Source: Nitrospirota bacterium
GTDB lineage: Bacteria; Nitrospirota; Thermodesulfovibrionia; UBA6902
DNA length: 64,000 nt
Reading direction: 5' to 3'
Assembly (NCBI GenBank): GCA_016222905.1
Contig: JACRPZ010000017.1
Span: 4,319-68,318 of the forward strand
The notes beneath the pieces were generated by a model that was not told the DNA's origin, ran no database searches, and was given only the letters and a program-made list of their open reading frames with translations. Within the stretch, counting starts at the first letter, position 1. Each line of letters starts with the position of its first letter. Shown piece after piece: positions 891-18,205 of the stretch. The position numbers and the translations under genes were made by a program.

Positions 891-1177
891 ACAATACCGA
901 ATGCAAATCCTTCCTGTTGTCTTGGGCGAGATGTTGAATGACCCTGATCTGATCAAAGTCGCAAAGAGTTATGCAGGCAATGCTTCAAATAAAAAAATTG
1001 ATATAGCAGGATTGAAGAAAGCATCTGACAAAAAATAAACAACTTAATTATAAAACGTGGAGACGTGGCTCTGAATGCCTTTCAAGTTAATGCGGAATAT
1101 AGACCCCATCTATTACACAAGAACGGAGCTATCAGACCGCTTACGCATGGACATGAAAAAGAGCTGATGATGGCAAA

Positions 1178-2932
1178 TTAGGCTATCGTCCAACACTTGT
1201 TTATTTCTGCAGCAAACTTCGGCCACTGACTCGAAACATAAGGAAACTTCTCTTTGTTTTTAAAATCAATCTTAAGGGCAGAAAGCTTTTTTTGGTAAAA
1301 CCCTATTTCCTTAACACCTTGGTAAACTTCCAATGACATACCAAAGCTTTTTATGAACGCAACAATAGAAGTAACTGTCAATAACTTGCTTGTACCATCT
1401 GTAACCCAATCATCTTTAAAATTACTCTGAACTGATATAAAAAACTTACAAATTGTATCAGCACAAAAAGATACATATTTATTCAGAAGTTCTTCAGCGA
1501 TATTATCTTTCCCTTCCTGTTTCTGTAGTAAATTTTTGTCTTGATTGTGCCAATACTTAAAAAGCGTTTCTTTTGATTCGTCAATTTCGACAAGCTGTTG
1601 CAGTCCATATTTTATAATTGTTGGCGTTTTAATGCCCTTATTGTCAAGCTCTGAAAGTAAAAATAGATTGAGAAATGGCGAACGAGTATTCATCTTTTGG
1701 ATTACACTTGTAGATATTCCTATTGGAGAAAAAGGGTCTTGCAGGGACTGAATGTGTTGTAGAATTTGCGTATTAACTTTTTTCTGTTTGCTGTTTATTT
1801 CCAGAAATAGCTGGCTCTCAAATTTCCTCTTCTCCGACTCGGTAAACATCCCTTTCTGATAGTATAATCCCGTAATAAATAGGTGTCTTTTATTCCGAAG
1901 GTCAGCGATTATTCTCTCTTCTTGATCATCAGGACCTTCGTAGTGACCAAACACTCTATGCTGTCCATCAATTATACCAATTGAGTTGCTTTTGTAAGGA
2001 ATTTTGATTTCTATATTAGATGTTACGTCGTCGATTGCTTTAGGATCGATAGGTTCACTTTCCAAATCCTTCTCGCCTTTTAAATAAAATTTAGCCTCTT
2101 TCGGCAAACTAACAATAATATTATCAATAAATGTCCTTTTCTCCCGTGATAGAAATTCACGTATGCTAACTATTTTACTTCTTTCAATCAGTCTTTGATA
2201 ATAGTATCCTGTATTCTGATCCCAATTCTCTTTTCGAAAAACGTACGCACAATCTAGCAACTCCTTTGCTGTCATGACAAAAGATACAAGAGACACACCT
2301 GAAGGCATCCCACTGACATCTTCAGGAAATATTACTGCACTATATATGTGTTCAGGGTAGCTTCCCTTTGTGTTTCCTATTTGTCTAAAATCGACCCCAA
2401 TAAATTTATAAAACTCATTTCTTGCTGAATATCTAATGCTATCTGCTACTTTTAGGAAATACTTCAGTATCCTATAATCTATATACTTGAATTCGCCATA
2501 AAGAATTCGCTTTTCTTCTTCTATAGGTTGTTCGGTGAAATAGATGTAGAATATTTTATAGCGTGCATTAGAATAATTATCGAAGCGAGCAAATTTGTCT
2601 TTCCCTATGTTTTTAATCCAGCTTAGGAAATTTTCTCTATCAGTCGAAAGCTTCTCGAAAAATTCATACTTATTTCGTAAATGATCTGTCGCATTAGTCT
2701 TCCCAATTGTTTCTTCACAAATCAGAATAATGTTTTTAAATAAAAAAACACTATCAATTTCACTTTCTCTGCCATCAAATCTTACTTTTTTCCCTTCCGT
2801 ACGAATGTATTCAAACCCCATACGTTTAAACATTTCAAGGATGGCTTTATGAAACTTAATTTGGTGTTTACGTTGTGGAGTTAAAGGAACTTTCTTTTTT
2901 CTCTTTCTTTTTTTCATTTTCCGAGTAGCCAT
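1178..2932 (-). CDS. DGQHR-domain protein (DndB/DpdB-like, ParB/Srx fold) with a long N-terminal extension and a polybasic N-terminus
   Basis: 584 aa. Exact motif IGIIDGQHRVFGH at about residue 323. N-terminus MATRKMKKRKRKKKVPL. AT-rich codon usage. Lies 9 bp downstream of the MTase gene on the same strand. Confidence 0.7.
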   Translation of the reverse strand: MATRKMKKRKRKKKVPLTPQRKHQIKFHKAILEMFKRMGFEYIRTEGKKVRFDGRESEIDSVFLFKNIILICEETIGKTNATDHLRNKYEFFEKLSTDRENFLSWIKNIGKDKFARFDNYSNARYKIFYIYFTEQPIEEEKRILYGEFKYIDYRILKYFLKVADSIRYSARNEFYKFIGVDFRQIGNTKGSYPEHIYSAVIFPEDVSGMPSGVSLVSFVMTAKELLDCAYVFRKENWDQNTGYYYQRLIERSKIVSIREFLSREKRTFIDNIIVSLPKEAKFYLKGEKDLESEPIDPKAIDDVTSNIEIKIPYKSNSIGIIDGQHRVFGHYEGPDDQEERIIADLRNKRHLFITGLYYQKGMFTESEKRKFESQLFLEINSKQKKVNTQILQHIQSLQDPFSPIGISTSVIQKMNTRSPFLNLFLLSELDNKGIKTPTIIKYGLQQLVEIDESKETLFKYWHNQDKNLLQKQEGKDNIAEELLNKYVSFCADTICKFFISVQSNFKDDWVTDGTSKLLTVTSIVAFIKSFGMSLEVYQGVKEIGFYQKKLSALKIDFKNKEKFPYVSSQWPKFAAEINKCWTIA

Positions 2933-2941
2933 AGTTCTGAT

Positions 2942-4195
2942 TTAATCTCCACCAACTTTTATTGGAATATCAGAATACATAAACTCAAACTTCGTCTCAT
3001 TTTTAAGAACATCTACCATTTTGCATGAAGAAGTATAAGAGAAAAATCTATCGAATTTATATTTGTAAGACTTGGCTTTATTTAATTTCTGAGCGATTTC
3101 GGAATCTTTCTTTATAGTTATAGTTGGATTAATTTTAGATTGCTTGATCAAATCACGCAATTCTTTATTGCCTAAATCTATCAATGGCATCTGCCCGTTT
3201 TGTAATATAATGACTTCAAGGTCGTTATTAGCTTTGTCCTTTACATAATATAAAAAAGAATGTTTGTTAACCTTATTCAAATGCTCACAAATATTACTTG
3301 CAACTTTTAATTTCCGCAGTTTTTTGTTGGTTTTTCTGAAATTGTCAAAGAGCAACTTAGCATCTTCTAATTCTTTAACACGCCTTTGCCAGTATCTTTC
3401 TGCACCTATCAAAACTTCAGTTTCAAATCGCTCTTTGTAAGACCTATTTACATCTAAGCCTACAGAATTTCGATGCATTTTGCTTGCAATTGCTAACACG
3501 GAACCTGATCCTGTAAAAGGATCAAGAATCCAATCATTTTCATCACTACAAAGAGAAATTATTTTTTCAACAAGTGAAAATGGGAAAGGACATAGATGAT
3601 TTTGTTTGCTATCTCCCCAACCTCTGATGGGTGTAGTGAAATTCCAAACATTTGATGGCGCTTTGCCATTTGGATTGTAACGTTCAGGATAAGTCTTCCA
3701 CCATTTTTTCAGATCAAGAATTTCACGAACTCTATCAACTTTAAACTTGAAGCTATCTCCTTTAGTGAAGAACAGAATATACTCATGCTGATTTTTAAAT
3801 TTACCTTTGTGATTCCAAGGTAAATTTTTGTCTTTGTCCCAAATAATTATATCTTGTAAAATCCAGGTTTTCTTTGAATTATCCTTGAGCCTATTTACTA
3901 TATCAAACGGGAAAAGTTTAACCTCTTTGTTTTTTTTAAAAGTATCTACTACCAACCAAAATGTTGCATCTGTTGTAGAAAGATCATGGCAATCCTGAAA
4001 TATTGAACATAGAACATCTAAGTAATCGTTATAGCTTTTCTGCCCATAACCAACTTGCTGTCTGTTATTGTCATAATTAAGTAAATCAAAGTATGGCGGG
4101 GATGAAATAATCAATTGAGGCGCAGGGATTTTCTTAATCTTAATGGTTTTTTTTACATCTTTTGCATTGGCAATAATATAACGTTGTTGAATCAT
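2942..4195 (-). CDS. Beta-class DNA methyltransferase (SPPY motif IV before FxGxG motif I; probably N4-cytosine or N6-adenine)
   Basis: 417 aa. IISSPPYFDL (motif IV) precedes DPFTGSGS (motif I), the beta-class order. A C-terminal extension of about 150 aa follows. AT-rich islet. Confidence 0.85.
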   Translation of the reverse strand: MIQQRYIIANAKDVKKTIKIKKIPAPQLIISSPPYFDLLNYDNNRQQVGYGQKSYNDYLDVLCSIFQDCHDLSTTDATFWLVVDTFKKNKEVKLFPFDIVNRLKDNSKKTWILQDIIIWDKDKNLPWNHKGKFKNQHEYILFFTKGDSFKFKVDRVREILDLKKWWKTYPERYNPNGKAPSNVWNFTTPIRGWGDSKQNHLCPFPFSLVEKIISLCSDENDWILDPFTGSGSVLAIASKMHRNSVGLDVNRSYKERFETEVLIGAERYWQRRVKELEDAKLLFDNFRKTNKKLRKLKVASNICEHLNKVNKHSFLYYVKDKANNDLEVIILQNGQMPLIDLGNKELRDLIKQSKINPTITIKKDSEIAQKLNKAKSYKYKFDRFFSYTSSCKMVDVLKNETKFEFMYSDIPIKVGGD

Positions 4196-4623
4196 ATTTT
4201 ATAGTTTAGAGAAGGCAAGTGAACTGCCAAATTATATATTCAGCAACAAAGATTTAGCAAGCAAAAATAAGGAAGTATGTCAGAGCAAAATAGTGGGTGC
4301 TCTCGGGAAGGTATAGCATTTTGCGATACCGCCCAGTCCCGAATAAAATTAATTAATGATAATACTTATACCTGTTAAAGACAAGGATTTTTTCTTCTGT
4401 CTCAAAGTGGATAATCAGTTTTACCGCCCCGGCTCATTCCCCACAAATTCAAAGAAAACGACTTGAGGCTTTGTCAGTGATATATAAATCTGTCCAATAC
4501 CCCCTAATGTGGGCATCCCTTTTGGGGTATTAACAATAAAAATAAAAGTTGATATCGTTAAATCGTCAAAAAGGAACTATTTCTTGTTCCCATATGCTGC
4601 AAAAGAAAGGGGGTGAATGTGTA

Positions 4624-5082
4624 ATGAAATCAAGGGTCCTTATAACCATTCTGTCGATACTTACTTTCCTGATGTCGTCAGCAGTTGTGCATGCGGGAGG
4701 CGCCACCCGGGTTGCGGAAGCCATCTGGGCAAACGGTAATATCTATGACACGATTCTGACTCCGGCCACTTTTGTGGCCCCTCCGTTGCAGTCAACCGAC
4801 ATCATCTATAGCTTTATGTTAAGCGGTCTCGAAGGGCAGAGGTCTGTTGCGGAAAGCGCTCCCGGTGACCAAGACTATAACGGTGGTCGATGGAATGTAC
4901 AGATGGTTGTCTTTACTCCACAGGGGATCGCGGTCCATGATCCCGATGGTGACGGTATCGTGAACTTCGAGCTGACAACAGCAGAAATGGTACTTGAGCA
5001 CGAAGCGTTGGGGCATCTGACCATCAGTGCCGCTAATTTCTACTTCGAGTGTCCGTTGCTCCCTCGTCGCGGTAACCGGTAG
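4624..5082 (+). CDS. Secreted hypothetical protein
   Basis: The internal start MKSRVLITILSILTFLMSSAVVHAGG has a signal peptide and is preceded by an AAGGGGG RBS. The longer ORF from 4549 lacks an RBS. Confidence 0.5.
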   Translation: MKSRVLITILSILTFLMSSAVVHAGGATRVAEAIWANGNIYDTILTPATFVAPPLQSTDIIYSFMLSGLEGQRSVAESAPGDQDYNGGRWNVQMVVFTPQGIAVHDPDGDGIVNFELTTAEMVLEHEALGHLTISAANFYFECPLLPRRGNR

Positions 5083-5103
5083 ATGAATTCATCATCTGCA
5101 TAA

Positions 5104-5137
5104 AGAGGGGCAGGCAGCCGCCTGCCCCTCTTTATGG
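5104..5137 (+). terminator. Rho-independent terminator hairpin (agaggggcaggc-agcc-gcctgcccctct followed by a T-run)
   Basis: GC-rich perfect stem followed by TTTAT, directly after the stop of the 4624..5082 gene. Confidence 0.5.
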
Positions 5138-5245
5138 TCCCATTATTCCCCTTTTATGAAAGCCCTTAATGAGGCATCCTGGACGCTATTTGCTTCTGTG
5201 CCAAGTGTCTCCGCCCCCTCATCCTGCATCCAGAGAATCTTAACT

Positions 5246-5290
5246 TTGACATCGAAACATTATGTGCTATTATTTTTCTTATAGTCCGAT
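5246..5290 (+). promoter_or_regulatory. Putative sigma70-type promoter (TTGACA-16 bp-TATTAT) with a conserved downstream box; the same cassette is repeated upstream of 18206
   Basis: About 46 bp are near-identical to 18125..18170. Sits upstream of the VOC gene, whose AGGAGG RBS is at 5294. Confidence 0.4.
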
Positions 5291-5305
5291 AGCAGGAGGT
5301 GATCT

Positions 5306-5728
5306 ATGAAACCGCGAATTACAGTAATTACATTGGGAGTGGACGATCTGGAAAGATCACTTAAATTCTATCGTGACGGACTCGGCCTGCCGACAGAGGG
5401 AATTATCGGCAAGGAATTTGAGTACGGCGCTGTCGCGTTCTTTAATCTGCAAAACGGCGTGATGCTTGCCCTCTGGCCGCGAAAGAGTATTGCTCTTGAC
5501 TCAACAATTCCTCTTCAGCCGCCGAGCAGCACTGAAGTTACCATCGGGCATAACGTAAACAGCAAAGAAGAAGTGGACGCGGTTATGAAGCAGGCAAAAG
5601 AAGCGGGCGCAAAGATAGTCAAATCTGCCCAAGATACCTTTTGGGGCGGTTATGCCGGTTATTTTCAAGACCCCGATGGCCATTTGTGGGAAGTGGTCTG
5701 GAATCCGCAGATGAAGATAGAAGATTAG
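5306..5728 (+). CDS. VOC/glyoxalase-bleomycin resistance family protein
   Basis: 140 aa of two beta-alpha-beta-beta-beta modules. Conserved FQDPDGHLWEV near the C-terminus. Strong RBS. Confidence 0.8.
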   Translation: MKPRITVITLGVDDLERSLKFYRDGLGLPTEGIIGKEFEYGAVAFFNLQNGVMLALWPRKSIALDSTIPLQPPSSTEVTIGHNVNSKEEVDAVMKQAKEAGAKIVKSAQDTFWGGYAGYFQDPDGHLWEVVWNPQMKIED

Positions 5729-5730
5729 TG

Positions 5731-5757
5731 TAACGTTAGGCGTAACATGTTATAATT
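5731..5757 (+). promoter_or_regulatory. Palindromes taacgtta and taacatgtta overlapping a TATAAT -10 box; putative HigA operator and promoter
   Basis: A perfect 10-bp palindrome at 5743..5752 overlaps tataat at 5751..5756, just upstream of higB. Confidence 0.35.
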
Positions 5758-5763
5758 TAAATA

Positions 5764-6042
5764 ATGATAAGGTCTTTCAGGCACAAAGGTCTTGAAAAAT
5801 ATTTCTATGATGGAGATAAAAAAGGAATTAACGTTCAGCATGCGAACAGGCTTGGACGAATTCTTGATCGTTTAGACGCTTCTATATCCCCTCAGGATAT
5901 GAATTTGCCCGGTTTTAAATTACATGAGCTTAAAGGGAAAGAAAAAAGCGTCTGGGCAGTCTGGGTGAGTGGTAATTGGCGAGTAACGTTTAAATTTCAT
6001 GGAAACGATGCAATACTCGTTGATTACCGTGATTACCACTAA
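5764..6042 (+). CDS. higB: HigB-type toxin (RelE/ParE superfamily, plasmid-maintenance killer protein)
   Basis: 92 aa. MIRSFRHKGLEKYFYDG...WRVTFKF is the characteristic HigB signature. Confidence 0.85.
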   Translation: MIRSFRHKGLEKYFYDGDKKGINVQHANRLGRILDRLDASISPQDMNLPGFKLHELKGKEKSVWAVWVSGNWRVTFKFHGNDAILVDYRDYH

Positions 6043-6061
6043 TTTGAGAGGAGGATTAAGT

Positions 6062-6352
6062 ATGACTGGAAAAAGAAAACCCGTTCATCCCGGAGAAGTT
6101 TTGAGTGAAGATGTTATTAAGCCTTTGGGACTTACGGTAACTGAAGCTGCAATGAAGCTGGGAGTTGCCAGAAAAACATTGTCTACCTTATTGAATGGCA
6201 AAGCATCATTAAGTCCTGACATGGCGGTAAGAATAGCAAAAGCAACTAATACATCTCCGGAGAGTTGGTTATATATGCAGGCAAAGTTGGACATCTGGAT
6301 TGTAGCCAGGAAATTACCAAAAGTTCAAGAGCTTAAAGCAATCGCTGTATAA
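6062..6352 (+). CDS. higA: HigA antitoxin (XRE-type HTH)
   Basis: HPGEVLSEDVIKPLGLTVTEAAMKLGVARKTLSTLLNGK is the HigA HTH. AGGAGG RBS sits 8 nt upstream. Immediately follows higB. Confidence 0.85.
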   Translation: MTGKRKPVHPGEVLSEDVIKPLGLTVTEAAMKLGVARKTLSTLLNGKASLSPDMAVRIAKATNTSPESWLYMQAKLDIWIVARKLPKVQELKAIAV

Positions 6353-6379
6353 GAAAAGAGTCTGTTTACTTCACTCACC

Positions 6380-6480
6380 CGGATTTTTCTGTTAAACTCT
6401 CCTCATGCCTATAATTAAGGTCGAAGGCTTTCAAAGAAGTTCGGGGACTTGACTGCCGTCAACAATGTCTCTTGACCCAT
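6380..6480 (+). repeat. Partial duplicate of the ABC ATPase 5' region (copy of about 9187..9290)
   Basis: ctcctcatgcctataattaaggtcgaagg...gttcggggacttgactgccgtcaacaatgtctct is about 90% identical to the real ABC gene start. The reading frame is disrupted, so this is a pseudo start. Confidence 0.8.
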
Positions 6481-6618
6481 CGTTCAGGTATGAAATAAAT
6501 GGATGCAGGCTTGTCTATTGCGTTCCATCTGATAGCGAAACGGACACGAACGTCTTTAACCCCGAAGAAGGACGATGGCGATGACATATGAAGAAGGTTT
6601 TCGGTATACTCATGGATT

Positions 6619-9006
6619 ATGGACGAACAGACCCTCCGCGTTCTTGAATTCGATAAGATACTCAGGATGGCTGCCGGCTTTGCGGTGACGGTCCCAGGCA
6701 GCGAGCTTGTCAGGAAAACAGCGCCGCTGAAGACCGCCGGCTATGCAAGGCAACGGATAAACCTCATTTCAGAGTGCAGGAGATTCGTCTCCGAAGGAAA
6801 GCATTTCGGGATTGAGCATTTTGACGATCTCTCATCATTTTTCCGAAGGGTAAGACCGGCTGATTCCGTGCTCATCCCCATGGATCTGAGATCATTCCTG
6901 CCGATCCTCTATTCCGCTTTAAACTTAAGAATGCTGGGCGAAGATTCGGAATATCAGGGCATAGGCGCTATCGCGTCTACACTCTCAACCCATCCGGAGA
7001 TAATGAAGGCGATTGAGCGCTCTATAGACTGGGACGGAGAGATCAGTGACAGCGCTAGCCCTGAGCTCTCTTCCATAAGACGGGCGATCCGGTCATGTGA
7101 AACCAAGATAAAAACTCTCCTTGAAGGGATTCTGAAACAGGAGGACCTCCAGCAGCACCTTCAGGACTTCTATCTTGCCGAACGTAACAACCGATGGGTC
7201 GTCCCCGTAAAGACAGACTCCAAAGGCAGCGTGCCCGGGATTGTCCATGACATCTCAAATACGGGAGAGACGGTCTATGTTGAGCCTTACGCGATCCAGC
7301 ACCTTGGAAATGAGCTCGAATCCCACAGGGCGGAAGAGAAGCTCGAGGAGTATAGGATACTGAGGAGTCTCTGCTCACTCATAAGAGAACACCTCAAAGC
7401 AATTGAAGATGATTATCGTATTGTCGCTGAGATCGACGCTCTTCAGGCGATTGCAGGATTTTCCGACCAGATGGGCATGTCCGCTCCTGAAATTAATGAA
7501 GAGGGATACGTGCGCATCATTCACGGACGGCACCCGCTTTTGTGGAAGACACTCAGGAGGGAGAAACGTGAAAACGACCTCGTCCCGCTCGACCTGGAAT
7601 TGGGGAGGGGACATTCCTGCATGGTCATTACCGGTTCGAATGCGGGCGGGAAGACAGTCGCTCTTAAGACGATCGGCGTGCTCTGTCTCATGGCCCTTTG
7701 CGGTATGCATACGCCCTCGGATTCCGGTACGACATTCCCGTTCCTTAAGCGCGTCTTTGCCGACATCGGGGACGACCAGTCCATAGAGCAAAACCTATCG
7801 ACCTTCTCTGCCCACATCAGGCGTATTTCGGATATCGTAAAGCGGAGCGGAAGCGGCACTATGATCATTATCGATGAGCTGGGAACAGGTACATCCCCTG
7901 AAGAGGGCGGCGCTCTCTCCTGCGCCATCCTGCGAAAGATCAGGGCACTCGGCGCCATATCGGCCGTATCCACCCATCTCGGCACCCTCAAGGTATTTGC
8001 CCATTCGGAACCCGGCATGATAAACAGCGCCATGGAGATGGCGGCGGTAGTTGTAAGCGGCAAACCGACACATAAACCTACATATAAACTGGTAGTCGGT
8101 GAACCGGGAACCTCTCATGCCTTTGAGATAGCCGGTTTGCTCGGACTGCCTGATGAGATTATTAAAGAGGCACGGGCCTTTATTACTGAAGAAGACGCGG
8201 CTGTCGAATCGCTCATTTCAGAGCTGAAGAAGAGGACGGTGGAATTAAACATGAGACTGAAAGAGGTGGAAACGATGAGGTCAGAGGCTGAACATCTACG
8301 GCTGTCCATGGCGCAAGAACTCTCACGGCTCAAGATCCTGGAGAAAGAGACTCACGCTGAAGCCTTGAAGGAGGCGGAGGAGTTTTTGCAGAAGACAAAG
8401 AGAGAGGCGAGGGATATCGTCGATGCGATGAAGCGGGCCAAACTTGAGGAGGCGCAAGAGATGGTTAAAGGGCTTGATAAGATAAGCGATGAAGTCGCGA
8501 CCGCCAGCAGGCAATATCTCCCTGATAAGAAGAGACTCACATATGTGCGCACAGGACAGCATGTCTTCGTTCATATTCTCGGCAAAACAGGCGTGGTCCG
8601 GACTGTCAACGAGAAGTCCAAAAGATGCCAGGTGCTCGTTGAAGGCAGAGAGATCGCGGTTCCATTTAAAGAGCTTTCTGAAGTTGAACCTGACATCACT
8701 GCCAGCGAGAAGTCTGATGACACAGGCAAAGAAAGGCTGTCTCTTTCCAAGCCCGAGCTCTTGCATCTTCCGACCGAACTGAACCTTATCGGCCAGCGTG
8801 TAGACCCCTCTCTCTCAAAAATAGAACGCTTCCTTAATGACGCCTCAATGGCAGGGGCGGCGCAGGTAAAGATAATTCACGGATACGGGACCGGCATCCT
8901 TTCCAGAGCTGTAAGGGATTACCTGAAAGACCACCCGCTGGTTGAAAGTTTCAGAAAAGGCAATGAAGAAGAAGGCGGAAATGCGGTCACAATAGTCTTG
9001 CTGTAG
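6619..9006 (+). CDS. mutS2: Endonuclease MutS2 (MutS family with a C-terminal Smr domain)
   Basis: 795 aa. Walker A ITGSNAGGKTVALKT and DELGTGT. C-terminal Smr domain (LIGQRVDPSL...IIHGYGTGILSRAV). Confidence 0.9.
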   Translation: MDEQTLRVLEFDKILRMAAGFAVTVPGSELVRKTAPLKTAGYARQRINLISECRRFVSEGKHFGIEHFDDLSSFFRRVRPADSVLIPMDLRSFLPILYSALNLRMLGEDSEYQGIGAIASTLSTHPEIMKAIERSIDWDGEISDSASPELSSIRRAIRSCETKIKTLLEGILKQEDLQQHLQDFYLAERNNRWVVPVKTDSKGSVPGIVHDISNTGETVYVEPYAIQHLGNELESHRAEEKLEEYRILRSLCSLIREHLKAIEDDYRIVAEIDALQAIAGFSDQMGMSAPEINEEGYVRIIHGRHPLLWKTLRREKRENDLVPLDLELGRGHSCMVITGSNAGGKTVALKTIGVLCLMALCGMHTPSDSGTTFPFLKRVFADIGDDQSIEQNLSTFSAHIRRISDIVKRSGSGTMIIIDELGTGTSPEEGGALSCAILRKIRALGAISAVSTHLGTLKVFAHSEPGMINSAMEMAAVVVSGKPTHKPTYKLVVGEPGTSHAFEIAGLLGLPDEIIKEARAFITEEDAAVESLISELKKRTVELNMRLKEVETMRSEAEHLRLSMAQELSRLKILEKETHAEALKEAEEFLQKTKREARDIVDAMKRAKLEEAQEMVKGLDKISDEVATASRQYLPDKKRLTYVRTGQHVFVHILGKTGVVRTVNEKSKRCQVLVEGREIAVPFKELSEVEPDITASEKSDDTGKERLSLSKPELLHLPTELNLIGQRVDPSLSKIERFLNDASMAGAAQVKIIHGYGTGILSRAVRDYLKDHPLVESFRKGNEEEGGNAVTIVLL

Positions 9007-9159
9007 GGCAAGGGCCAATTAGGTTGTTAACTGATACATCAAGCGGCCAATGCCCGCAAGTAAGTCAATAAGGTACATATCAGCAGCAGGAACTGAGCTT
9101 TGCGAGGAAGATAACGGTTCAGGCGGAGCTATAACCCGAGTGACACAAGGGACGGGGGA

Positions 9160-9209
9160 GGCATCAGATGAAGATAGAAGATTAGGGATATTTCTGCTAA
9201 AATCTCCTC
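9160..9209 (+). repeat. Second copy of the VOC 3' end (cagatgaagatagaagattag) fused to the native ABC 5' UTR
   Basis: 9164..9184 is identical to 5708..5728, the last codons and stop of the VOC gene. Confidence 0.75.
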
Positions 9210-10190
9210 ATGCCTATAATTAAGGTCGAAGGCCTTTCAAAGAAGTTCGGGGAGTTGACTGCTGTCAACAACGTCTCTTTTGAAGTAGAAGAAGGGGCCA
9301 TCTTCGGTTTTTTGGGGCCCAACGGGGCAGGCAAGACAACCACCATCAGTATACTCTGTACGCTGCTTTCGCCGACGTCCGGCCGGGCGTCCATCGCCGG
9401 GCATGACTGCGCAAAAGAACCCTCGGAAGTTAGAAAAGCCATAGGGATCGTCTTTCAGGACACAACACTCGACAAGGATCTAACGGCATATGAGAACCTT
9501 ATGTTCCATGCTTACCTCTATGACGTAAAGAAGGGCGAGATGAGAAAGCGCATCGATGACGCGCTGCACTTCGTCGGACTGTTCGAAAGAAGGGACGACC
9601 TCGTGAAAAAATTTTCCGGGGGGATGAAGAGGAGGCTCGAAGTGGCGCGGGGAATTATCCACAGGCCCAGGGTACTGTTCCTCGATGAGCCTACGCTCGG
9701 GCTGGACCCTCAGTCGCGCGCAAACCTGTGGGAGTTCATTATCGGGCTTCAGAGGGAATACAATACGACTATCTTTATGACGACACATTATATGGAAGAG
9801 GCCGAGGTCTGCAATAAGATAGCGATCATCGACAACGGGGATATCATAGCGTCCGGAACACCGGATGAACTTAAAAAGACGGTTGGCGGAGATGTAATTT
9901 ATATCAACACCCCGGACAATCAGAAGGCAAAACTTGAAATAGAGAGGTTGTTCAATGTTGCGGTCACCGAGAAAGACAATGAACTGTTTCTGCCGGCCCT
10001 GAACGGCGACGCCTCCATTCCTGAAATTATAAACGCTGTAGGAGGAAAAGTCCTTTCCGTAAGGCTTCAGAGACCCACGCTGAATGACGTCTTTCTGAGA
10101 ATGACAGGCAGGCAGATCAGGGAGCAGAACGGGTCTGCCGAAGATACGGTCAGAGAATCGGTCCGGGCTTACAGGAGGCGGCATGGTTGA
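9210..10190 (+). CDS. ABC transporter ATP-binding protein
   Basis: Walker A GPNGAGKTTT, signature FSGGMKRRLEVARG, Walker B VLFLDEPTLGLD. Confidence 0.9.
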   Translation: MPIIKVEGLSKKFGELTAVNNVSFEVEEGAIFGFLGPNGAGKTTTISILCTLLSPTSGRASIAGHDCAKEPSEVRKAIGIVFQDTTLDKDLTAYENLMFHAYLYDVKKGEMRKRIDDALHFVGLFERRDDLVKKFSGGMKRRLEVARGIIHRPRVLFLDEPTLGLDPQSRANLWEFIIGLQREYNTTIFMTTHYMEEAEVCNKIAIIDNGDIIASGTPDELKKTVGGDVIYINTPDNQKAKLEIERLFNVAVTEKDNELFLPALNGDASIPEIINAVGGKVLSVRLQRPTLNDVFLRMTGRQIREQNGSAEDTVRESVRAYRRRHG

Positions 10191-10941
10191 GGCAAACGCC
10201 GTTTATGTGCTTATCGCGAGGGACTTCAAAAAGTTTGTGAGGGAAAAAAGCAGGCTCGTTTCCACGCTCGCCCGCCCGCTCATCTGGCTCTTTCTTGTCG
10301 GAGGCGGCATGTCGAGGTTCGTGTCGCCGGGCGATGGCGTCACGTATATGCAGTTCATATTTCCCGGGATACTCGGCATGACGATCCTCTTCAGTTCGAT
10401 ATTCTCTTCCATATCCATTATCTGGGACAAAGAGTTCGGCCTGATGAAAGAGATACTGGTCGCGCCGGTTTCGAGGCTTTCCATCGTTATCGGAAAGGCG
10501 CTCAGCGGCACCATCATCTCCACTATACAGTGCGCCATTATCCTTTTCCTCTTTCCTTTTATCGGCATCAAACTGGGCCTGACGGCTATACCTTACACCA
10601 TAGCGATTGCCTTCCTCCTTGCGTTCTGCATATCCGCGCTGGGCATCGTCATCGCTACCTTCATCGAGAACATGGAGAGTTTCAGCGCCATCATGAACTT
10701 CATAGTGATGCCAATGTTCTTCCTGTCCGGGGCCATGTATCCTGTGCAAAAACTTCCCGATATTTTAAAACTGGTCGCGAAGCTGAACCCGCTGACGTAT
10801 GGGATAGACGCGCTGAAGCATTCCATATTCCGGGGCTCCGTGGTGCCCGATTTCCCGCTCCTTGCGGACCTGGGCGTCCTGGCAGTCTCGTCAATCGTAT
10901 TTGTGATCGCTGCCGGATATTTTTTCGAGAGAAAGAAGTAA
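10183..10941 (+). CDS. ABC-2 family transporter permease
   Basis: 252 aa with six predicted TM segments. Overlaps the ATPase gene by 8 bp (translational coupling). Confidence 0.85.
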   Translation: MVEANAVYVLIARDFKKFVREKSRLVSTLARPLIWLFLVGGGMSRFVSPGDGVTYMQFIFPGILGMTILFSSIFSSISIIWDKEFGLMKEILVAPVSRLSIVIGKALSGTIISTIQCAIILFLFPFIGIKLGLTAIPYTIAIAFLLAFCISALGIVIATFIENMESFSAIMNFIVMPMFFLSGAMYPVQKLPDILKLVAKLNPLTYGIDALKHSIFRGSVVPDFPLLADLGVLAVSSIVFVIAAGYFFERKK

Positions 10942-11035
10942 AAGGTCGGTGGCGTCGTCCCTCTTGTATTCCGGCATCATTCCTGTAAACCACAGTGCTT
11001 CTGTGCCACGGCGAAAGCGTTTCCGGCTCCCTCAT

Positions 11036-11100
11036 TACAATAATTACGTTGGGCGTGGACGATCTGGAAAGGTCACTCAAATTTTCGTGACGGACTCGGC
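11036..11100 (+). pseudogene. Orphan fragment of the VOC gene N-terminal region (GVDDLERSLKF...DGLG)
   Basis: ttgggcgtggacgatctggaaaggtcactcaaattttcgtgacggactcggcc matches 5333..5390 of the intact VOC gene, with a frameshift. Confidence 0.6.
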
Positions 11101-11232
11101 CTTCTTCGCTTTATGCTTAAAAAACTCAATTTGTTGCAACCGTTTTTTTGCTTCCTCCAAAGTCTTATACGTACCCATGTTCCTTCCACTTTCAGCAACC
11201 ACCCGATAGCCGTCTTTAATTTTGCGAATCAT
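11074..11232 (-). CDS. Small hypothetical protein (52 aa, MIRKIKDGYRVVAESGRNMGTYKTLEEAKKRLQQIEFF...)
   Basis: GGAGG RBS 6 nt upstream. Not in the ORF track because it is under 60 aa. Its 3' end runs into the VOC fragment. Confidence 0.35.
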
Positions 11233-11301
11233 AAAAGCGCCTCCTTCATCCACGTATCTGGAAGACTATTTCCAAATAGACAATCTTTGATTCAATGTTC
11301 C

Positions 11302-11442
11302 TTAACGGACCAGCCCAAGAATACCGATCAGGATGAGATAAATCGCAATGACATAATTCAAGAGTTTCGGCATAATGAGGATCAGGACCCCTGCAATTAG
11401 GGCTGCTATGGGTTGAAGAGGATATACACTAATGGACATCAT
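11302..11442 (-). CDS. DUF3096-like small membrane protein (46 aa)
   Basis: MMSISVYPLQPIAALIAGVLILIMPKLLNYVIAIYLILIGILGLVR has two TM helices, closely resembles DUF3096 family members, and has an AAAGGAGG RBS. Confidence 0.55.
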   Translation of the reverse strand: MMSISVYPLQPIAALIAGVLILIMPKLLNYVIAIYLILIGILGLVR

Positions 11443-11668
11443 ATATGTGCCTCCTTTCCGGTTTTATTTCATATCATCCGGACTCCCTGAATAATCATCT
11501 CGTTGGTCCCGGTAATTTCAATTATCCCAGAAAATCTTCAATTGTCAAGACATCATTTATTTCATTCTCCGGGGCCTGAAGCTTCTAAACTATCAACCCG
11601 GTAATTATCGTTACCCCGGTTTTTATGGTAAAATTAAACTAATTTTTAAAAGCACTTTTGATCAATCG

Positions 11669-12793
11669 ATGAAAAAGAAAATCTTTCTGACCCTGATTGG
11701 CCTGGTACTTTTGGTCGCCATACTCGGCGGGCTTAAGGCGCTGCAGATCCGTAAGATGATCGCAGCCGGCAGCAAGTTCGTCCAGCCTGCCGAACCTGTC
11801 ACGACCGCCAAGGTCACGTCCGGCACGTGGGAAACTCTGCTTCCCGCGGTAGGAAGCCTTACGGCGGTCCAGGGAGTCACGGTTGCCGCCGAACTGCCGG
11901 GAAAAGTGGCGGATATCGCCTTCACCCCCGGCGCAAGCGTCAAGAAAGGGGAACTGCTTCTGCGTCAGGACACTTCCTCGGAGCAGGCACAGCTTCCCGG
12001 CGCTGAGGCGTCATTGACTCTTTCAGAGCGTAATCTGTCCCGCGCCAAAACTCTTGTCGCGAAGGGGATAATTTCCCAGTCCGAGGTCGACACTGCTGAG
12101 GCCAACTTTCAACAGGCCCAGGCGGCAGTGGAGAACCTGCGCAGCCAGATCGCAAAGAAAACTGTCCGCGCCCCTTTCAGCGGCCGGATGGGGACCCGGC
12201 TGGTCAATCTGGGGCAGGTCCTTCGCGAAGGAGACGCGATAGTTTCTCTGCAGACACTCTCACCGATCTTTGTTGATTTCCAACTGCCGCAGCAACATTT
12301 GAGTCAGCTGCATCGCGGGCTGCAGATCAGGGTAACTGCCGATGGCCTGCGCGGCCGGCAGTTGACCGGTGAGATCACCGCCGTCAATCCGCAGGTGAAT
12401 GCGGCTACCCGGTCGATCGGCATTCAGGCCACGCTGCCAAATACGGATGAAGTGCTTCTTCCGGGGATGTTCGTTAATATTGAATTAGTGCTGCCTGACC
12501 GGCGGCCTGTCCTCTTGATACCGGCTACCGCTGTCCTCGACGCACCTTTCGGCGATTCGGTCTTCATAGTAGAGGAGAAACAGGCTGAAGGTAAAAAGCA
12601 TCTTGAATTGCGCCAGCAGTTTATACGTATCGGCGAGAAACGCGGCGATTTCGTAAGCGTCCTCTCCGGGCTGAACGCTGGTGAAAGTGTGGTCAGCACC
12701 GGCGTCTTCAAACTGCGCAAGGGGCAGACGGTGGTAGTTGACAACAGCCTGGCCCCGGAGTTCAAGCTGGACCCGAGGCCGGAGAACAACTGA
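11669..12793 (+). CDS. RND efflux periplasmic adaptor (membrane fusion protein, HlyD family)
   Basis: 374 aa. N-terminal TM, coiled-coil region, beta-barrel C-terminus. Directly upstream of the RND pump gene. Confidence 0.9.
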   Translation: MKKKIFLTLIGLVLLVAILGGLKALQIRKMIAAGSKFVQPAEPVTTAKVTSGTWETLLPAVGSLTAVQGVTVAAELPGKVADIAFTPGASVKKGELLLRQDTSSEQAQLPGAEASLTLSERNLSRAKTLVAKGIISQSEVDTAEANFQQAQAAVENLRSQIAKKTVRAPFSGRMGTRLVNLGQVLREGDAIVSLQTLSPIFVDFQLPQQHLSQLHRGLQIRVTADGLRGRQLTGEITAVNPQVNAATRSIGIQATLPNTDEVLLPGMFVNIELVLPDRRPVLLIPATAVLDAPFGDSVFIVEEKQAEGKKHLELRQQFIRIGEKRGDFVSVLSGLNAGESVVSTGVFKLRKGQTVVVDNSLAPEFKLDPRPENN

Positions 12794-12797
12794 CAAG

Positions 12798-15700
12798 ATG
12801 AAATTCACCGACCTCTTTATCCGCCGTCCGGTGCTGGCGCTGGTCATCAACCTGCTGATCATCATTGCCGGGCTGCAGGCGATTCGCACTCTCAATGTAC
12901 GGCAGTACCCTCGCAGCGAAAATGCCGCAGTCACCATCACCACCGTCTATGTAGGCGCCAATTCCAATCTGGTTAGGGGCTTCGTCACTACTCCGCTGGA
13001 ACGGGCTGTTGCCGCTGCTGACGGCATCGATTATATAGAGTCACAAAGCAGTCAGGGCCTTTCGATAATCAATGTCAGGCTTAAACTTAACTACGACGCC
13101 ATCAAGGCCCTGTCAGAGATCAGCTCCAAGGTTGACCAGGTACGCCGAGACCTGCCGCCCGAGGCCGAGGTGCCGACCATTAACGTGGAATCGGCGGACA
13201 GCCGTTTCGCCTCGGCGTATCTAAGTTTCACCTCCGATATCCTCGCCCAGAACGAAATTACCGATTACCTTGTCAGGATCGTTCAGCCGCGTCTCTCGGC
13301 GCTTGAAGGAGTGCAGAGAGCAGATATTCTCGGGGCCCGTACCTTTGCAATGCGCATATGGCTTAAACCGGAACGGATGGCAGCCCTTAATATCAGCCCG
13401 TCCCAGGTGAGGCAGGCGCTCTCTGCCAATAACGTGCTTTCGGCGATCGGCCAAACCAAGGGCTCGTTGATCCAGGTCAACCTGACTGCCGATACCAATC
13501 TCAGCAGTATCGGGGAATTCAAACGCCTGGTGGTCCGCGAACAGGAAGGCGCCATCGTTAGGATCGAGGACATTGCAGATGTTGTACTCGGGGCAGAAGA
13601 TTACGACGCCGAGGTGCGTTTTACCGGCCAGGCCGCTGTATTCATGGGGATCTGGCCGCTCCCGAATGCCAACTCGCTTGACGTCATAAAACGTGTACGC
13701 GCAGAGATGGATGCGATCCAGAAAGACTTGCCGGGAGGGATGCAGGCACGGATCGCCTATGACGCCACTGCCTATATCGACAATGCTATTAAGGAGGTCA
13801 TTACAACTCTGAGTGAAACCCTGCTGATCGTCGTTATAGTTATCTTCCTTTTCCTCGGTTCACTGCGTTCTGCCGTTATACCTGTCATCGCTATTCCGCT
13901 GTCGCTGATCGGAGCGGTCTTTCTGATGCAGGCCTTTGGCTTTACCGTCAACCTGCTGACGCTGCTCGCTATAGTCCTTTCAGTCGGGCTGGTTGTTGAC
14001 GATGCTATTGTTGTAGTTGAAAATGTTGAACGGCATCTCCGCATGGGCGGATCATCTTTTGACGCGGCGATACTCGGCGCGCGGGAGCTGATCGGGCCGC
14101 TGATAGCCATGACCATCACCCTGGCAGCGGTTTATGCCCCGATCGGCCTGCAGGGCGGGCTGACCGGCGCGCTCTTCCGTGAATTCGCTTTTACCCTTGC
14201 CGGAGCCGTTACCATTTCCGGCATTGTCGCCCTGACTCTGTCGCCTATGATGTGTTCGCGGCTTATGAAGCCGGGGTCCGGCGAACATGGACTGGCAGGA
14301 CGCATAACCCGCGACTTCGGGCGGCTTCGTAATTTTTACGGCCGGATTCTCGATGCCAGCCTTCGCAACCGGCCGGCGGTCTTTATGGTCTGGCTGATAA
14401 TCGGATTGCTGACGATCCCCATGTTTATAATGTCCCCGAAGGAGCTTGCGCCGACTGAAGACCAGGGGGTTATTTTCGGCATCATCGAAGCCTCTGCCAA
14501 CGCCACCCTGGACCAGACCAGCCAATACGCGGCAGCTGCCAACCGTGCCTATATGAGCGTGCCGGAGACCGATTTCACCTTTCAAGTCACATTTCCCAGC
14601 TCCGGTTTCGCGGGAATGGTGATCAAGCCCTGGGATGAGCGGGATCGGACCGTGTTCGAGATCCTCCCGGAGGTGCAGCAGAAACTGTTTGCGATACCCG
14701 GCATCCGCATGTTCCCTGTTACTCCTCCGGCGCTTCCGGGCGGCGGTGATTTTCCGGTCGAGTTCATTATCGCTTCGACTGCGGAACCGGAGCAGATCCT
14801 TCAGTTCGCTCAGCAGATCCAGATGAAAGCGATGCAGAGCGGCATGTTTGCATTTCCTCCTATTATTGATCTTAAGATCGACCAACCGCAGGCGGAATTC
14901 AACATAGACCGCGACCGGGTCGCCTCTTTGGGATTGAACCTGCAGCAGGTGTCAAACGATCTGGGTGCAATGGTCGGCGGCAACTTCGTAAACCGTTTCG
15001 ACATAGCAGGACGCAGCTACAAGGTGATCCCGCAGATCCAGCGGATAGGACGCCTCAACCCGGACCAGCTTCAGCAGATACATATAAGCGGCCCGAATGG
15101 CGAGCTGGTGCCGCTGTCCACTATCGCCACAATCCGCAATTCAACCGTGCCGCGTTCGCTTAACCGTTTTCAGCAGCTCAATGCGGTGAAGATCAGCGGC
15201 GTTTCAGTCCGGCCGCTCGAAGAGGCGCTTAGCTACCTTGAGGACGAGGCAGCGAAGGTCCTGCCCAAAGGCTACAAGCTCGACTACACAGGCGAATCGC
15301 GTCAGCTCCGCACCGAAGGGAACCGCTTTTTACCTGCATTTGGGATGGCAGTGGTCCTGATCTTCCTGGTGCTGGCAGCACAGTTCAACAGCTTCCGCGA
15401 TCCATTCGTCATCCTCGCCGGTTCAGTGCCGTTGGCGATGTTTGGCGCGCTGACCTTCACCTTTTTGAAGATGCCTGATCCGAACACCCCTTTCCTGACC
15501 CACGGCTGGACCACCACACTCAACATCTATTCGCAGGTCGGGCTGGTGACACTGGTTGGACTGGTATCGAAAAACGGTATCCTGATAGTGGAATTCGCCA
15601 ATAAGGCCCAGGAGCGCGGCCTTGACAAACTTGCCGCGGTCCGCGAGGCAGCCGTTACACGTCTCCGGCCGATCCTGATGACAACTGCCGCCACCATCGC

Positions 15701-15887
15701 CGGTCATTTTCCCCTTACCCTGGTAAGCGGCGCAGGGGCCGCGGCGCGAAATTCCATTGGCCTCGTGCTTGTCGGCGGTATGGCAATAGGCACCCTCTTC
15801 ACACTTTTCGTTGTACCGTCGATCTATATGCTGGTGGCGAAGGACCATTCAAGAGACCGCAAAGCTGAGGCAGATGTTCATAGATGA
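12798..15887 (+). CDS. RND multidrug efflux permease (AcrB/HAE1 family)
   Basis: About 1030 aa from the ATG at 12798 (MKFTDLFIRRPVLALVINLLIIIAGL). 12 TM segments and two large periplasmic loops. The ORF-track start at 12738 overlaps the adaptor gene and is less likely. Confidence 0.9.
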   Translation: MKFTDLFIRRPVLALVINLLIIIAGLQAIRTLNVRQYPRSENAAVTITTVYVGANSNLVRGFVTTPLERAVAAADGIDYIESQSSQGLSIINVRLKLNYDAIKALSEISSKVDQVRRDLPPEAEVPTINVESADSRFASAYLSFTSDILAQNEITDYLVRIVQPRLSALEGVQRADILGARTFAMRIWLKPERMAALNISPSQVRQALSANNVLSAIGQTKGSLIQVNLTADTNLSSIGEFKRLVVREQEGAIVRIEDIADVVLGAEDYDAEVRFTGQAAVFMGIWPLPNANSLDVIKRVRAEMDAIQKDLPGGMQARIAYDATAYIDNAIKEVITTLSETLLIVVIVIFLFLGSLRSAVIPVIAIPLSLIGAVFLMQAFGFTVNLLTLLAIVLSVGLVVDDAIVVVENVERHLRMGGSSFDAAILGARELIGPLIAMTITLAAVYAPIGLQGGLTGALFREFAFTLAGAVTISGIVALTLSPMMCSRLMKPGSGEHGLAGRITRDFGRLRNFYGRILDASLRNRPAVFMVWLIIGLLTIPMFIMSPKELAPTEDQGVIFGIIEASANATLDQTSQYAAAANRAYMSVPETDFTFQVTFPSSGFAGMVIKPWDERDRTVFEILPEVQQKLFAIPGIRMFPVTPPALPGGGDFPVEFIIASTAEPEQILQFAQQIQMKAMQSGMFAFPPIIDLKIDQPQAEFNIDRDRVASLGLNLQQVSNDLGAMVGGNFVNRFDIAGRSYKVIPQIQRIGRLNPDQLQQIHISGPNGELVPLSTIATIRNSTVPRSLNRFQQLNAVKISGVSVRPLEEALSYLEDEAAKVLPKGYKLDYTGESRQLRTEGNRFLPAFGMAVVLIFLVLAAQFNSFRDPFVILAGSVPLAMFGALTFTFLKMPDPNTPFLTHGWTTTLNIYSQVGLVTLVGLVSKNGILIVEFANKAQERGLDKLAAVREAAVTRLRPILMTTAATIAGHFPLTLVSGAGAAARNSIGLVLVGGMAIGTLFTLFVVPSIYMLVAKDHSRDRKAEADVHR

Positions 15888-16005
15888 AATGTGGTGGCGT
15901 GGCGATGATCACCATTTATGCTAATGCACTGAACAAGACCAATTTCTTGATTGGATCAACCAGAGATATTTTTGGGGCAGTCTGTGTCGATGAAGGGAGA
16001 GAATA

Positions 16006-17136
16006 TTACCTCAAAACTCCAGTGGCGTATTTCCTTTTCGACAAAGAAGGTCTGGAAGGAATTTTATAAAAAGCTTTTTTATGTTTTTTTGTCTTGCCAG
16101 CATTATACATTTCTCTCTCTTCCTTAACGCTTTGAATATATTCAGGAGTCGCCATTGCAAGCAAATCCTCAACAAAGCCGTCTCCGTTACGCTTGCCTTT
16201 TTGATTTGTCTTTCTTCTTTCTTTCTTCTGAATGACAGATTCAATACTTGAGATATTGCTATATGTTATATCTGAATATCTTGGCGCTTCAAAAAAAAGC
16301 CTTGTGTAGGCAAGGTCACAATATTCTTTATGAGTATCTATCAACAGACAGTCTCTATTTAACGACAGGGCTGCGATACCCGTTGATCCGCTCCCCGCAA
16401 AAGGATCAACCACAAGCCCGCCTTCAGGGGAAAGCAGCTTAATAAAAAAAGATGGCAGTTCCATAGGGAATACCGCTGGATGACCTTTATTCTTTCCAAC
16501 AAGGGCAATGCTGAGAACATTGGACGGGAGAACGGTATTTTTCCCAACCCATCGAGAAAGGTCCCTGCCAAATCCGCTTTGATTAGCTGAATTGTTGCGG
16601 CTCTTATCTCCTTCGCCGAGCTTCTTAAGTCTTGATTCCGCCCAGCCACCCATTGGCATTTTTACAGCTTCCTGATTCATAAAAGGACGTTTGCTTTTTG
16701 CAAGGTGAAAGCAGTACTCCCATCCATCGCGAAGTCTTGTAGGCCAGTAACCGGGCATTGGATTTGTTTTATGCCAGATATAATCATCAATCGCCTGCCA
16801 TCCAGCATCTATAAGTTTTTCAATGGTACGCCAGACAAACCGGTGTCTCACGCCTTCAACCACTTTATCCTTTATATTGATTACAAGACTTCCTTCCGGC
16901 TTTAAGGCGTTCCAGTAAGATTCATGAAAAGTTAGAAACCAATCAGGAAATTTATTGGGATGAATGCTGTCATAATGTTTTTTTCGAGCGTCTGCATACG
17001 GCGGAGATGTGACGATAAGATCAACAGAGCCTTTATAATCGACGAGATTCTCACGACTATCACCATTAATAATCGTGCATTTAGGTCTATAGTCAAAGAG
17101 AACTTCTTTATTTTGATTCTTGTGACTTCTTATCAA
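16006..17136 (-). CDS. Beta-class DNA methyltransferase (SPPY ... DPFAGSGST)
   Basis: 376 aa. LIVTSPPYADA (motif IV) precedes VVDPFAGSGSTG (motif I). AT-rich. Confidence 0.85.
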   Translation of the reverse strand: MIRSHKNQNKEVLFDYRPKCTIINGDSRENLVDYKGSVDLIVTSPPYADARKKHYDSIHPNKFPDWFLTFHESYWNALKPEGSLVINIKDKVVEGVRHRFVWRTIEKLIDAGWQAIDDYIWHKTNPMPGYWPTRLRDGWEYCFHLAKSKRPFMNQEAVKMPMGGWAESRLKKLGEGDKSRNNSANQSGFGRDLSRWVGKNTVLPSNVLSIALVGKNKGHPAVFPMELPSFFIKLLSPEGGLVVDPFAGSGSTGIAALSLNRDCLLIDTHKEYCDLAYTRLFFEAPRYSDITYSNISSIESVIQKKERRKTNQKGKRNGDGFVEDLLAMATPEYIQSVKEEREMYNAGKTKKHKKAFYKIPSRPSLSKRKYATGVLR

Positions 17137-18052: not shown

Positions 18053-18125
18053 AAAATAACTGGAAACTCTTCTTAATTTTACTTGTCTATGACAATTTGT
18101 TCAAGACAAAACATTACATAAAACC

Positions 18126-18170: not shown

Positions 18171-18205
18171 AAAGAACGAATAGTCTATTTATAAGGAGGT
18201 GTGAA

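Follow-up and report, generated by a model that had tools for sequence, protein, structure and literature searches.

Introduction

What does a protein of the DGQHR type do when its only partner is a single DNA methyltransferase? The question is raised by a two-gene locus in a 64,000-nucleotide stretch of contig JACRPZ010000017.1 (positions 4,319 to 68,318) of a Nitrospirota bacterium; this whole stretch is referred to as the window, and positions are counted from its first letter. Open reading frame (ORF) calling places both genes on the minus strand of the window: a beta-class N6/N4 DNA methyltransferase (MTase) gene (2942-4195; 417 amino acids [aa]), the M component, followed by the gene for a 584-aa protein with a DGQHR domain (1178-2932), the presumed R component. 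A preliminary description, made from the sequence alone, assigned the second protein to the DndB/DpdB family and suggested that the two genes form an unusual restriction-modification (R-M)-like system. R-M is the best-studied form of prokaryotic defence, yet the family to which this pair belongs has gone unrecognised: annotation pipelines return only "DGQHR domain-containing protein" or "hypothetical," and the hidden Markov model sets used for finding defence systems miss it.

We propose that the pair is probably a self-contained, mobile Type II-like R-M system, for which we infer nuclease activity, nucleoside triphosphate (NTP) dependence, protection by methylation, and an antiphage role. The observations behind this proposal are the domain composition of the two proteins, their invariant motifs, the near-obligate adjacency of the M and R genes, and their co-divergence.

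Conservation of the pair in genomes, plasmids, and phages

Linkage was assessed at 80 genome loci (L numbers) encoding relatives of the 584-aa protein at 31-68% identity, four of which are cut by a contig edge upstream of the gene. An MTase of the PF01555 family adjoins the DGQHR gene in all 76 testable genome loci, including L076, where it was missed by tblastn and confirmed by Pfam. It lies directly upstream on the same strand in 75 of them and is divergent in the other (L022). The called ORFs of the two genes usually overlap, and the distance between them runs from -122 to +25 bp except at three of the measured loci (42, 115, and 156 bp). The pair also occurs on two rhizobial megaplasmids (29-30% identity), where the annotation pipeline PGAP names its members "site-specific DNA-methyltransferase" and "DGQHR domain-containing protein"; a plasmid copy lies near an IS66 element and a RES-Xre toxin-antitoxin pair. 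In Akkermansia phage Chantilly, the pair is convergent and sits beside the integrase and the repressor, in a prophage moron position. An MTase is adjacent in seven of nine IMG/VR loci and in eight of ten viral loci overall.

In total, 86 of 88 testable homologous loci (76 genome, 2 plasmid, and 8 of 10 viral) carry an adjacent PF01555 MTase, a pairing far beyond chance. The two proteins also co-diverge: the pairwise identities of the MTases and of the DGQHR proteins correlate with a Mantel r of 0.78, a value reached in 0 of 999 permutations. The preliminary description had allowed that homologues might show no conserved linkage to MTases, a prospect that these figures set aside. No third gene recurs family-wide across the 80 loci, and the DGQHR gene looks damaged in only 2 of about 76. 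Judging from these sequences, the two genes form a stable and mobile module that purifying selection maintains.

Some individual loci deserve mention. The closest genome homologue of the window's pair, L002, from a Candidatus Brocadia metagenome-assembled genome (MAG), encodes a DGQHR protein 66% identical and an MTase 78% identical to those of the window. Its DGQHR gene carries a frameshift near residue 550 (L002:5159-5260) and its MTase is intact, which may reflect an inactivated R gene with M retained or an assembly error. At L086 (2189-6065), one of the two IMG/VR loci where no PF01555 MTase is adjacent, the DGQHR gene is truncated at its N terminus and stands beside a complete, separate system consisting of an EcoO109I-like restriction endonuclease (REase) and a C5-MTase fused to a helix-turn-helix (HTH) domain. 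On the Phyllobacterium zundukense plasmid NZ_CP017943.1 (L083, 4857-6683), the RGI layer of PLSDB gives the DGQHR-family gene a resistance name, "lmrP major facilitator superfamily antibiotic efflux pump," evidently in error, as the product is a soluble nuclease/ParB-like protein.

In about 35 of the 80 loci, the DGQHR gene is followed at a distance of 0-50 bp by a small convergent ORF of 72-97 aa on the other strand, for example, L038:3689-3916(-), L014:9773-10012(-), L053:9719-9934(-), and L080:9797-10018(-). This ORF occurs in a clade of Firmicutes and gut MAGs whose MTases are about 305 aa long with an SPPY motif, and it is absent from the window's clade. It has no Pfam or PHROG family; its C terminus carries a conserved motif resembling P-(V/I)-x-I-x-H-(I/V)-F-R-(I/V). 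A third component specific to this clade, perhaps a controller or an inhibitor, is one possibility.

Family assignment of the DGQHR protein

The 584-aa protein starts with MATRKMKKRKRKKKVPL, and its first 17 residues (2882-2932) form a polybasic tail that is predicted to be disordered, with low predicted local distance difference test (pLDDT) values at residues 1-10; a basic N terminus is present in homologues as well. Residues 318-330 read IGIIDGQHRVFGH and contain the DGQHR motif at 322-326 (1955-1969). Both the polybasic start and the position of the motif some 320 residues into the protein had been read correctly in the preliminary description. The DGQHR (ParB/Srx-fold) domain itself was recognised by the TIGR03187 "DGQHR domain" model, with 81.6 bits against a curated cut-off of 58.85; residues 212-528 (1349-2299) cover model positions 8-270 of 276. 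The motifs that define this domain are QR, DGQHR, and FxxxN (PMC4619093). All three, namely, Q246-R247 (2192-2197), the DGQHR motif, and F376-LEI-N380 (1793-1807), are invariant in 73 of 73 homologues. The DGQHR motif would correspond to Box II of ParB, the P-motif through which NTP phosphates are bound.

Assignment to DndB or DpdB, by contrast with assignment to the DGQHR domain, did not hold. The protein falls below the cut-offs of the DndB models TIGR04172 (38.3 bits versus 450) and PF14072 (22.9 versus a gathering threshold of 29.1) and of the DpdB model NF041060 (33.9 bits versus 300), and the PADLOC DpdB profile gives only a partial match (E = 1e-8, residues 213-327). Pfam detects neither DUF262 nor DUF1524 in it, and PADLOC finds no match to the GmrSD, SspE, or DndI families. 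Restriction-enzyme models from Pfam, NCBIfam, PADLOC, and PHROGs match neither the whole protein nor its N-terminal domain. Membership in an already characterised family, which the preliminary description had left as a possible outcome, is thus contradicted by the failure of the DndB, DpdB, and restriction-enzyme models alike. The gene context agrees with the earlier statement that no dnd, dpd, sulfur-transfer, or queuosine genes are adjacent: profile searches of the window found none within about 25 kb. A DpdA neighbour, of the tRNA-guanine transglycosylase-like type, is found neither in the window nor recurrently in related loci, and no dnd gene recurs across the 80 loci.

The family is large. 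An identical 584-aa protein is recorded from a Nitrospirae MAG, a word-index search returned 473 relatives, nearly all 560-600 aa long, and an exhaustive scan (E ≤ 1e-30) yielded at least 173 clusters at 50% identity. Members come from Nitrospirae, Planctomycetota/Brocadia, Bacteroidota, Bacillota, Campylobacter, Actinomycetota, and candidate phyla radiation (CPR) bacteria and, among archaea, from Methanosarcinales/Methanoperedens and Nanoarchaeota. By its profile scores, the 584-aa protein is neither DndB nor DpdB and belongs to a distinct family with a uniform length of about 580 aa.

A predicted nuclease domain at the N terminus

The region ahead of the DGQHR domain had been described as uncharacterised, which is true of its sequence, for which no family match was found, but not of its predicted fold. 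An AlphaFold2 model of the 584-aa protein, built on the family alignment, reached a pLDDT of 83.5 and a predicted template modelling (pTM) score of 0.79, and residues 1-200 modelled alone reached a pLDDT of 87. In this model, the N-terminal 200 aa are predicted to fold as a PD-(D/E)xK restriction-type nuclease, with the domain spanning aa 18-190 (2363-2881). A helix (residues 19-37) is followed by a meander of strands (41-75), a second helix (81-97), and a further strand (126-133), in keeping with the alpha-beta-beta-beta-alpha-beta core of the superfamily.

Structure comparison placed the predicted domain nearest to the cleavage domains of BspD6I and FokI, with further matches that include NucS, Shedu SduA, Can2, BstEII, Hna, HamA, and NgoMIV. 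When the isolated domain was searched with Foldseek, an R2 restriction-like endonuclease ranked first (E = 3e-4), followed by AF1548, Bax1, Cdn1, XisH, BspD6I, and McrC. On the strength of the model, the domain represents a known fold carried by a new sequence family.

The putative active site is suggested by the coincidence of conservation with the predicted strands and helix in one segment (D60, E73-E74-T75, H84, and K88; 2669-2755). In the model, D60 opens one beta-strand and E73-x-T75 lies on the next, the canonical catalytic positions, while H84 and K88 are on the following helix. Counted over 73 paired homologues, D60 is kept in all 71 that are ungapped at that column and E73 in 73 of 73; position 74 is Asp or Glu in 71 of 73, T75 is kept in 70, H84 in 73, and K88 in 70. 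The restriction-partner reading is strengthened because the N-terminal 200 aa are predicted to be a PD-(D/E)xK nuclease, and the R-M-like interpretation of the preliminary description now finds support in the conserved linkage together with this predicted nuclease fold and its invariant acidic residues.

The methyltransferase and the organization of the locus

The upstream protein had been described as a beta-class MTase with an SPPY motif, encoded 9 bp upstream of the DGQHR gene on the same strand, and its coordinates, Pfam match, and motif order bear this out. It matches PF01555 (N6_N4_Mtase; E = 1.8e-42, aa 27-256) and PADLOC MTase_II (2e-37), and the nearest solved structures are M.MboIIA and M.RsrI. 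The catalytic motif IV, SPPY (aa 32-35; 4091-4102), precedes the S-adenosylmethionine (SAM)-binding motif I, FTGSG (aa 227-231; 3503-3517), which is the beta-class order. The pair thus includes a separate SAM-dependent MTase with (S/D)PP(Y/F) and FxGxG motifs, as expected of a Type II R-M system. A C-terminal extension (aa 257-417; 2945-3427), without a Pfam match or any recognisable family, sets apart the "long" (~417-480 aa) partner MTases, the only ones that have it.

Partner MTases vary across the family. Their motif IV reads SPPY in 64 cases, DPPY in 8, and DPPF in 1, and they fall into three length classes: SPPY enzymes of about 300-320 aa, DPPY enzymes of about 270-307 aa, and SPPY enzymes of about 417-480 aa with the C-terminal extension, the window's type. 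On at least three occasions the MTase has been exchanged for a non-orthologous one, presumed REases 57-63% identical to each other being paired with SPPY MTases of ~420 aa or DPPY MTases of ~280 aa. Between L001/L002 and L003/L012, the REases are 62-63% identical and the MTases only 22-24%. No localised REase segment tracks these SPPY/DPPY switches.

The two genes of the window are separated by a 9-bp spacer (2933-2941), and a GGAG Shine-Dalgarno-like element, a possible ribosome-binding site for the DGQHR gene, lies within the final codons of the MTase gene; spacer and element together suggest that the genes are co-transcribed. A promoter-like site, TTGCTA-18-TATAAT (4231-4260, minus strand), lies 36 bp upstream of the MTase ATG and is assigned by consensus match only. 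The islet was rightly called AT-rich, with a guanine-plus-cytosine (GC) content of 33.1% compared with 50.3% for positions 4549-20000. Its low GC content and the occurrence of the pair on plasmids and phages indicate, as far as sequence can, that the cassette is horizontally acquired or mobile.

Proposed mechanism and alternatives

In the R-M system that we propose, the MTase would mark host DNA, probably as N4-methylcytosine (m4C), the product expected from its SPPY motif, and the 584-aa protein, encoded downstream and probably co-transcribed, would be the restriction enzyme. DNA would be cut by its PD-(D/E)xK domain, which resembles the Type IIS cleavage modules of FokI and BspD6I, themselves independent of sequence. 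The DGQHR/ParB-fold domain, together with the C-terminal helical region, would bind DNA and NTP, and this part of the protein would act as a switch licensing cleavage only on DNA without the partner's methyl mark. A nuclease gated in this way would be the equivalent, for methylation, of DndI and SspE.

The NTP element of this mechanism is drawn from homology and from precedents, namely, DndI, BrxU, GmrSD, DpdB, and a DndB-like protein. DndI, a fusion of a ParB-like DGQQR NTPase with an HNH nuclease, serves a phosphorothioation system as its restriction arm. Its ATPase is stimulated by the mark, which also frees the enzyme from self DNA; neither NTPase activity nor defence is possible without the Arg of the DGQ(Q/H)R motif, and the R87A substitution abolishes defence (PMC11662687). 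ParB-fold proteins in general need the equivalent Arg to bind NTP, and a DndB-like protein binds ATP and GTP (preprint 10.1101/2025.10.10.680097). BrxU and GmrSD are stimulated by NTPs (2025 R-M review). DpdB, also ParB-like, is an ATPase on which preQ0 insertion depends.

Several points weigh against the R-M proposal. The nuclease assignment rests on a predicted fold, and the N-terminal domain has no sequence profile match in Pfam, PDB, PHROGs, PADLOC, or NCBIfam; a scan of 37 homologues of the domain at E ≤ 5 likewise gave no match to an REase model. The third catalytic position is occupied by Thr (E73-x-T75), the canonical Lys being absent. Variation at this position has precedents, with Gln in BglII and Glu in BamHI, and it can be conjectured that K88 on the following helix is a migrated catalytic Lys. 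If the enzyme recognises a single fixed sequence, the exchange of MTases without localised change in the REase calls for an explanation of its own. The two kinds of MTase could modify different bases within one shared site and so both protect it, or the nuclease could respond to methylation in a less specific way. In addition, an apparently intact DGQHR gene on a 5.5-kb IMG/VR contig (L085) has no MTase within 5.5 kb. A search of family databases and literature also found no member of the family that has been characterised. Finally, the characterised DGQHR proteins are not nucleases, DpdB being a modification-assisting ATPase and DndB a transcriptional regulator (PMC4507180).

The exchange of partners leads to a mechanistic variant of the R-M proposal that we consider possible, if tentative, in which the ParB-fold NTPase detects the methyl mark itself and frees or inactivates the nuclease on self DNA. 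Cleavage would then show little sequence specificity, as with the FokI/BspD6I-like cleavage domain, which is not sequence specific, and the switches between SPPY and DPPY partners without a localised REase change would follow. Detection of phosphorothioates by DndI and SspE offers a precedent (PMC11662687; PMC13251355). However, no hydrophobic mark-sensing pocket was identified in the DGQHR protein, the DGQHR domain is only a distant relative of DUF262, and partner switching is equally explained by two MTases modifying different bases in one recognition site. A more specific picture, equally tentative, is that of a DGQHR/ParB fold that reads base methylation (m4C, or N6-methyladenine with DPPY partners) in an NTP-driven manner and turns a FokI-like PD-(D/E)xK module off on self DNA. 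If true, the system would do for methylation what SspE and DndI do for phosphorothioates, and the swapping of closely related nucleases between non-orthologous MTases would be accounted for. It would also form a mechanistically new class of R-M, one whose choice between self and non-self falls to a ParB-type nucleotide switch and not to a domain that reads sequence.

It is less probable, and in our view unlikely, that the DGQHR protein is an accessory of the MTase, either a DndB-like NTP-dependent repressor of expression or a DpdB-like loader, with the nuclease-like domain serving as a DNA-binding module only. The roles of DndB and DpdB, the only characterised DGQHR proteins, speak for such a function, as do the non-canonical E-x-T in place of E-x-K and the intact homologue at L085 without a nearby MTase. 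Yet the nearly complete conservation of D60, E73, and the acidic position 74 across phyla is hard to explain for a dead nuclease, and the best structural matches of the N-terminal domain are active cleavage domains. Moreover, beta-class MTases normally act alone, and the gene order, tight coupling, horizontal mobility, and phage-moron occurrence fit a classical R-M cassette. That the pair is a non-autonomous fragment or satellite of a larger modification system (Dnd, Dpd, BREX, or another) is very improbable: DGQHR proteins classically sit inside dnd and dpd clusters and a small convergent ORF recurs downstream in the ~35 Firmicutes-type loci, but that ORF is missing from the window's own clade, no other gene is conserved across the family, the surrounding ~25 kb is free of dnd and dpd genes, and the DndB/DpdB equivalog models failed by an order of magnitude.

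Comparison with known systems

Like the 584-aa protein, DndI, SspE, GmrSD, and BrxU join a ParB/Srx-fold NTPase with a DGQ(Q/H)R motif to a DNA nuclease, and DndI and SspE are likewise restriction arms of DNA-modification systems in which the mark modulates the NTPase, sparing self DNA (PMC11662687). These enzymes combine DUF262 with a C-terminal DUF1524 HNH nuclease, whereas the window protein has a ParB-like part of DGQHR (DndB) type and an N-terminal nuclease, a predicted PD-(D/E)xK domain. The partner modification also differs, being base methylation by a single MTase and not phosphorothioation as with DndI and SspE, while GmrSD and BrxU are modification dependent and, unlike the window pair, have no cognate MTase.

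DndB and DpdB share with the window protein the DGQHR domain with its QR, DGQHR, and FxxxN motifs and an association with DNA-modification genes. Their canonical forms lack a nuclease domain, in contrast to the extra 200-aa N-terminal domain of the window protein, which in turn has no dndCDE or dpdA neighbours. Compared with Type IIS enzymes whose cleavage domain is separable (FokI, BspD6I/Nt.BspD6I), a class served by beta-class MTases such as M.MboIIA, the window protein has its cleavage domain at the N terminus and, for DNA binding, a ParB/DGQHR fold instead of winged-helix/HTH recognition domains; NTP involvement is predicted for it, and there is no sequence similarity to FokI or BspD6I. 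ParB-N6N4-methyltransferase fusions of phages and plasmids resemble the window pair in bringing together a ParB-fold NTP-binding domain and a PF01555 MTase and in being enriched on mobile elements (preprint 10.1101/2025.10.10.680097). In those fusions, thought to be orphan or anti-defence methylases, the ParB fold is on the MTase itself and there is no nuclease, whereas in the window pair the ParB-like fold is on the predicted nuclease and the MTase is a separate protein. In function, the pair most resembles the DndI/SspE logic and the modular Type IIS enzymes; as to membership, the window protein is only a DGQHR-domain and PD-(D/E)xK-fold protein.

ParB-like COG1479 domains fused to HNH, PD-(D/E)xK, or HEPN nucleases and linked to R-M systems have been reported in general terms (Makarova et al. 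2013, PMC3632139). A module of an MTase with a PD-(D/E)xK-DGQHR protein is not described in that work, in literature mentioning "DGQHR" (REBASE not being covered), in the 2025 R-M review, or in the 2025 survey of ParB-CTPase-fold fusions. Recognition of the family, which extends across bacteria, archaea, plasmids, and temperate phages, would add a new REase architecture in which a PD-(D/E)xK domain is fused to a ParB/DGQHR fold, and a third functional context for the DGQHR domain, after Dnd and Dpd. The control of immune nucleases by ParB-fold NTP switches would extend from backbone sulfur marks to base methylation, and the two genes offer a compact model in which to study the coupling of epigenetic marks to DNA cleavage by such a switch. 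The family might also be a source of NTP-gated or Type IIS-like enzymes for biotechnology.

Genomic surroundings

The suggestion that the islet lies in a defence island was partly upheld: the neighbouring toxin-antitoxin pair is indeed HigB/HigA (5764-6352, by profile search), but the context is modest, comprising this HigBA pair and one possible HTH-linked pair. The latter lies directly downstream of the R gene on the minus strand (43-856), where a 124-aa HTH_26/Cro-C1-type regulator (482-856) and a 156-aa protein (43-513), without a match in Pfam, NCBIfam, PADLOC, or PHROGs, overlap by 32 nucleotides; in its arrangement, the couple is reminiscent of a toxin-antitoxin or controller pair. A near-perfect palindrome, ATGTACCATAATATGGTACAT (867-887), lies a short way upstream of the HTH gene and is probably its autoregulatory operator; a scan also scored it as terminator-like. 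Between this couple and the R gene, a 45-aa ORF (MQILPVVLGEMLNDPDLIKVAKSYAGNASNKKIDIAGLKKASDKK; 901-1038, plus strand) is convergent with the DGQHR gene and is also predicted by a public gene caller on an identical Logan contig. It has no family match, and its sequence is unrelated to the small ORF of the Firmicutes clade.

On the other side of the cassette, directly past a 177-aa ORF (4549-5082), a perfect 17-nucleotide inverted repeat with a 4-nucleotide loop (CATAAAGAGGGGCAGGC / GCCTGCCCCTCTTTATG; 5099-5136) lies at the islet's GC-rich edge and is probably a terminator. At L085 (420-4834), the flanks of the DGQHR gene encode a phage amidase, an HTH protein, and a YhcG PDDEXK nuclease. Farther along the window, a second PF01555 N6/N4 MTase (16006-17136, minus strand; 376 aa; E = 3.7e-40) is overlapped from upstream by a 314-aa ORF (17108-18052, minus strand) that has no Pfam or PHROG family, and the two may form a second, unrelated R-M pair (16006-18052). 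Two tandem Ku genes (20341-21132 and 21254-22051) and a LigD-type ligase with a phosphoesterase domain (23162-24829), all on the plus strand, look like a bacterial nonhomologous end-joining cluster (20341-24829) with a duplicated Ku.

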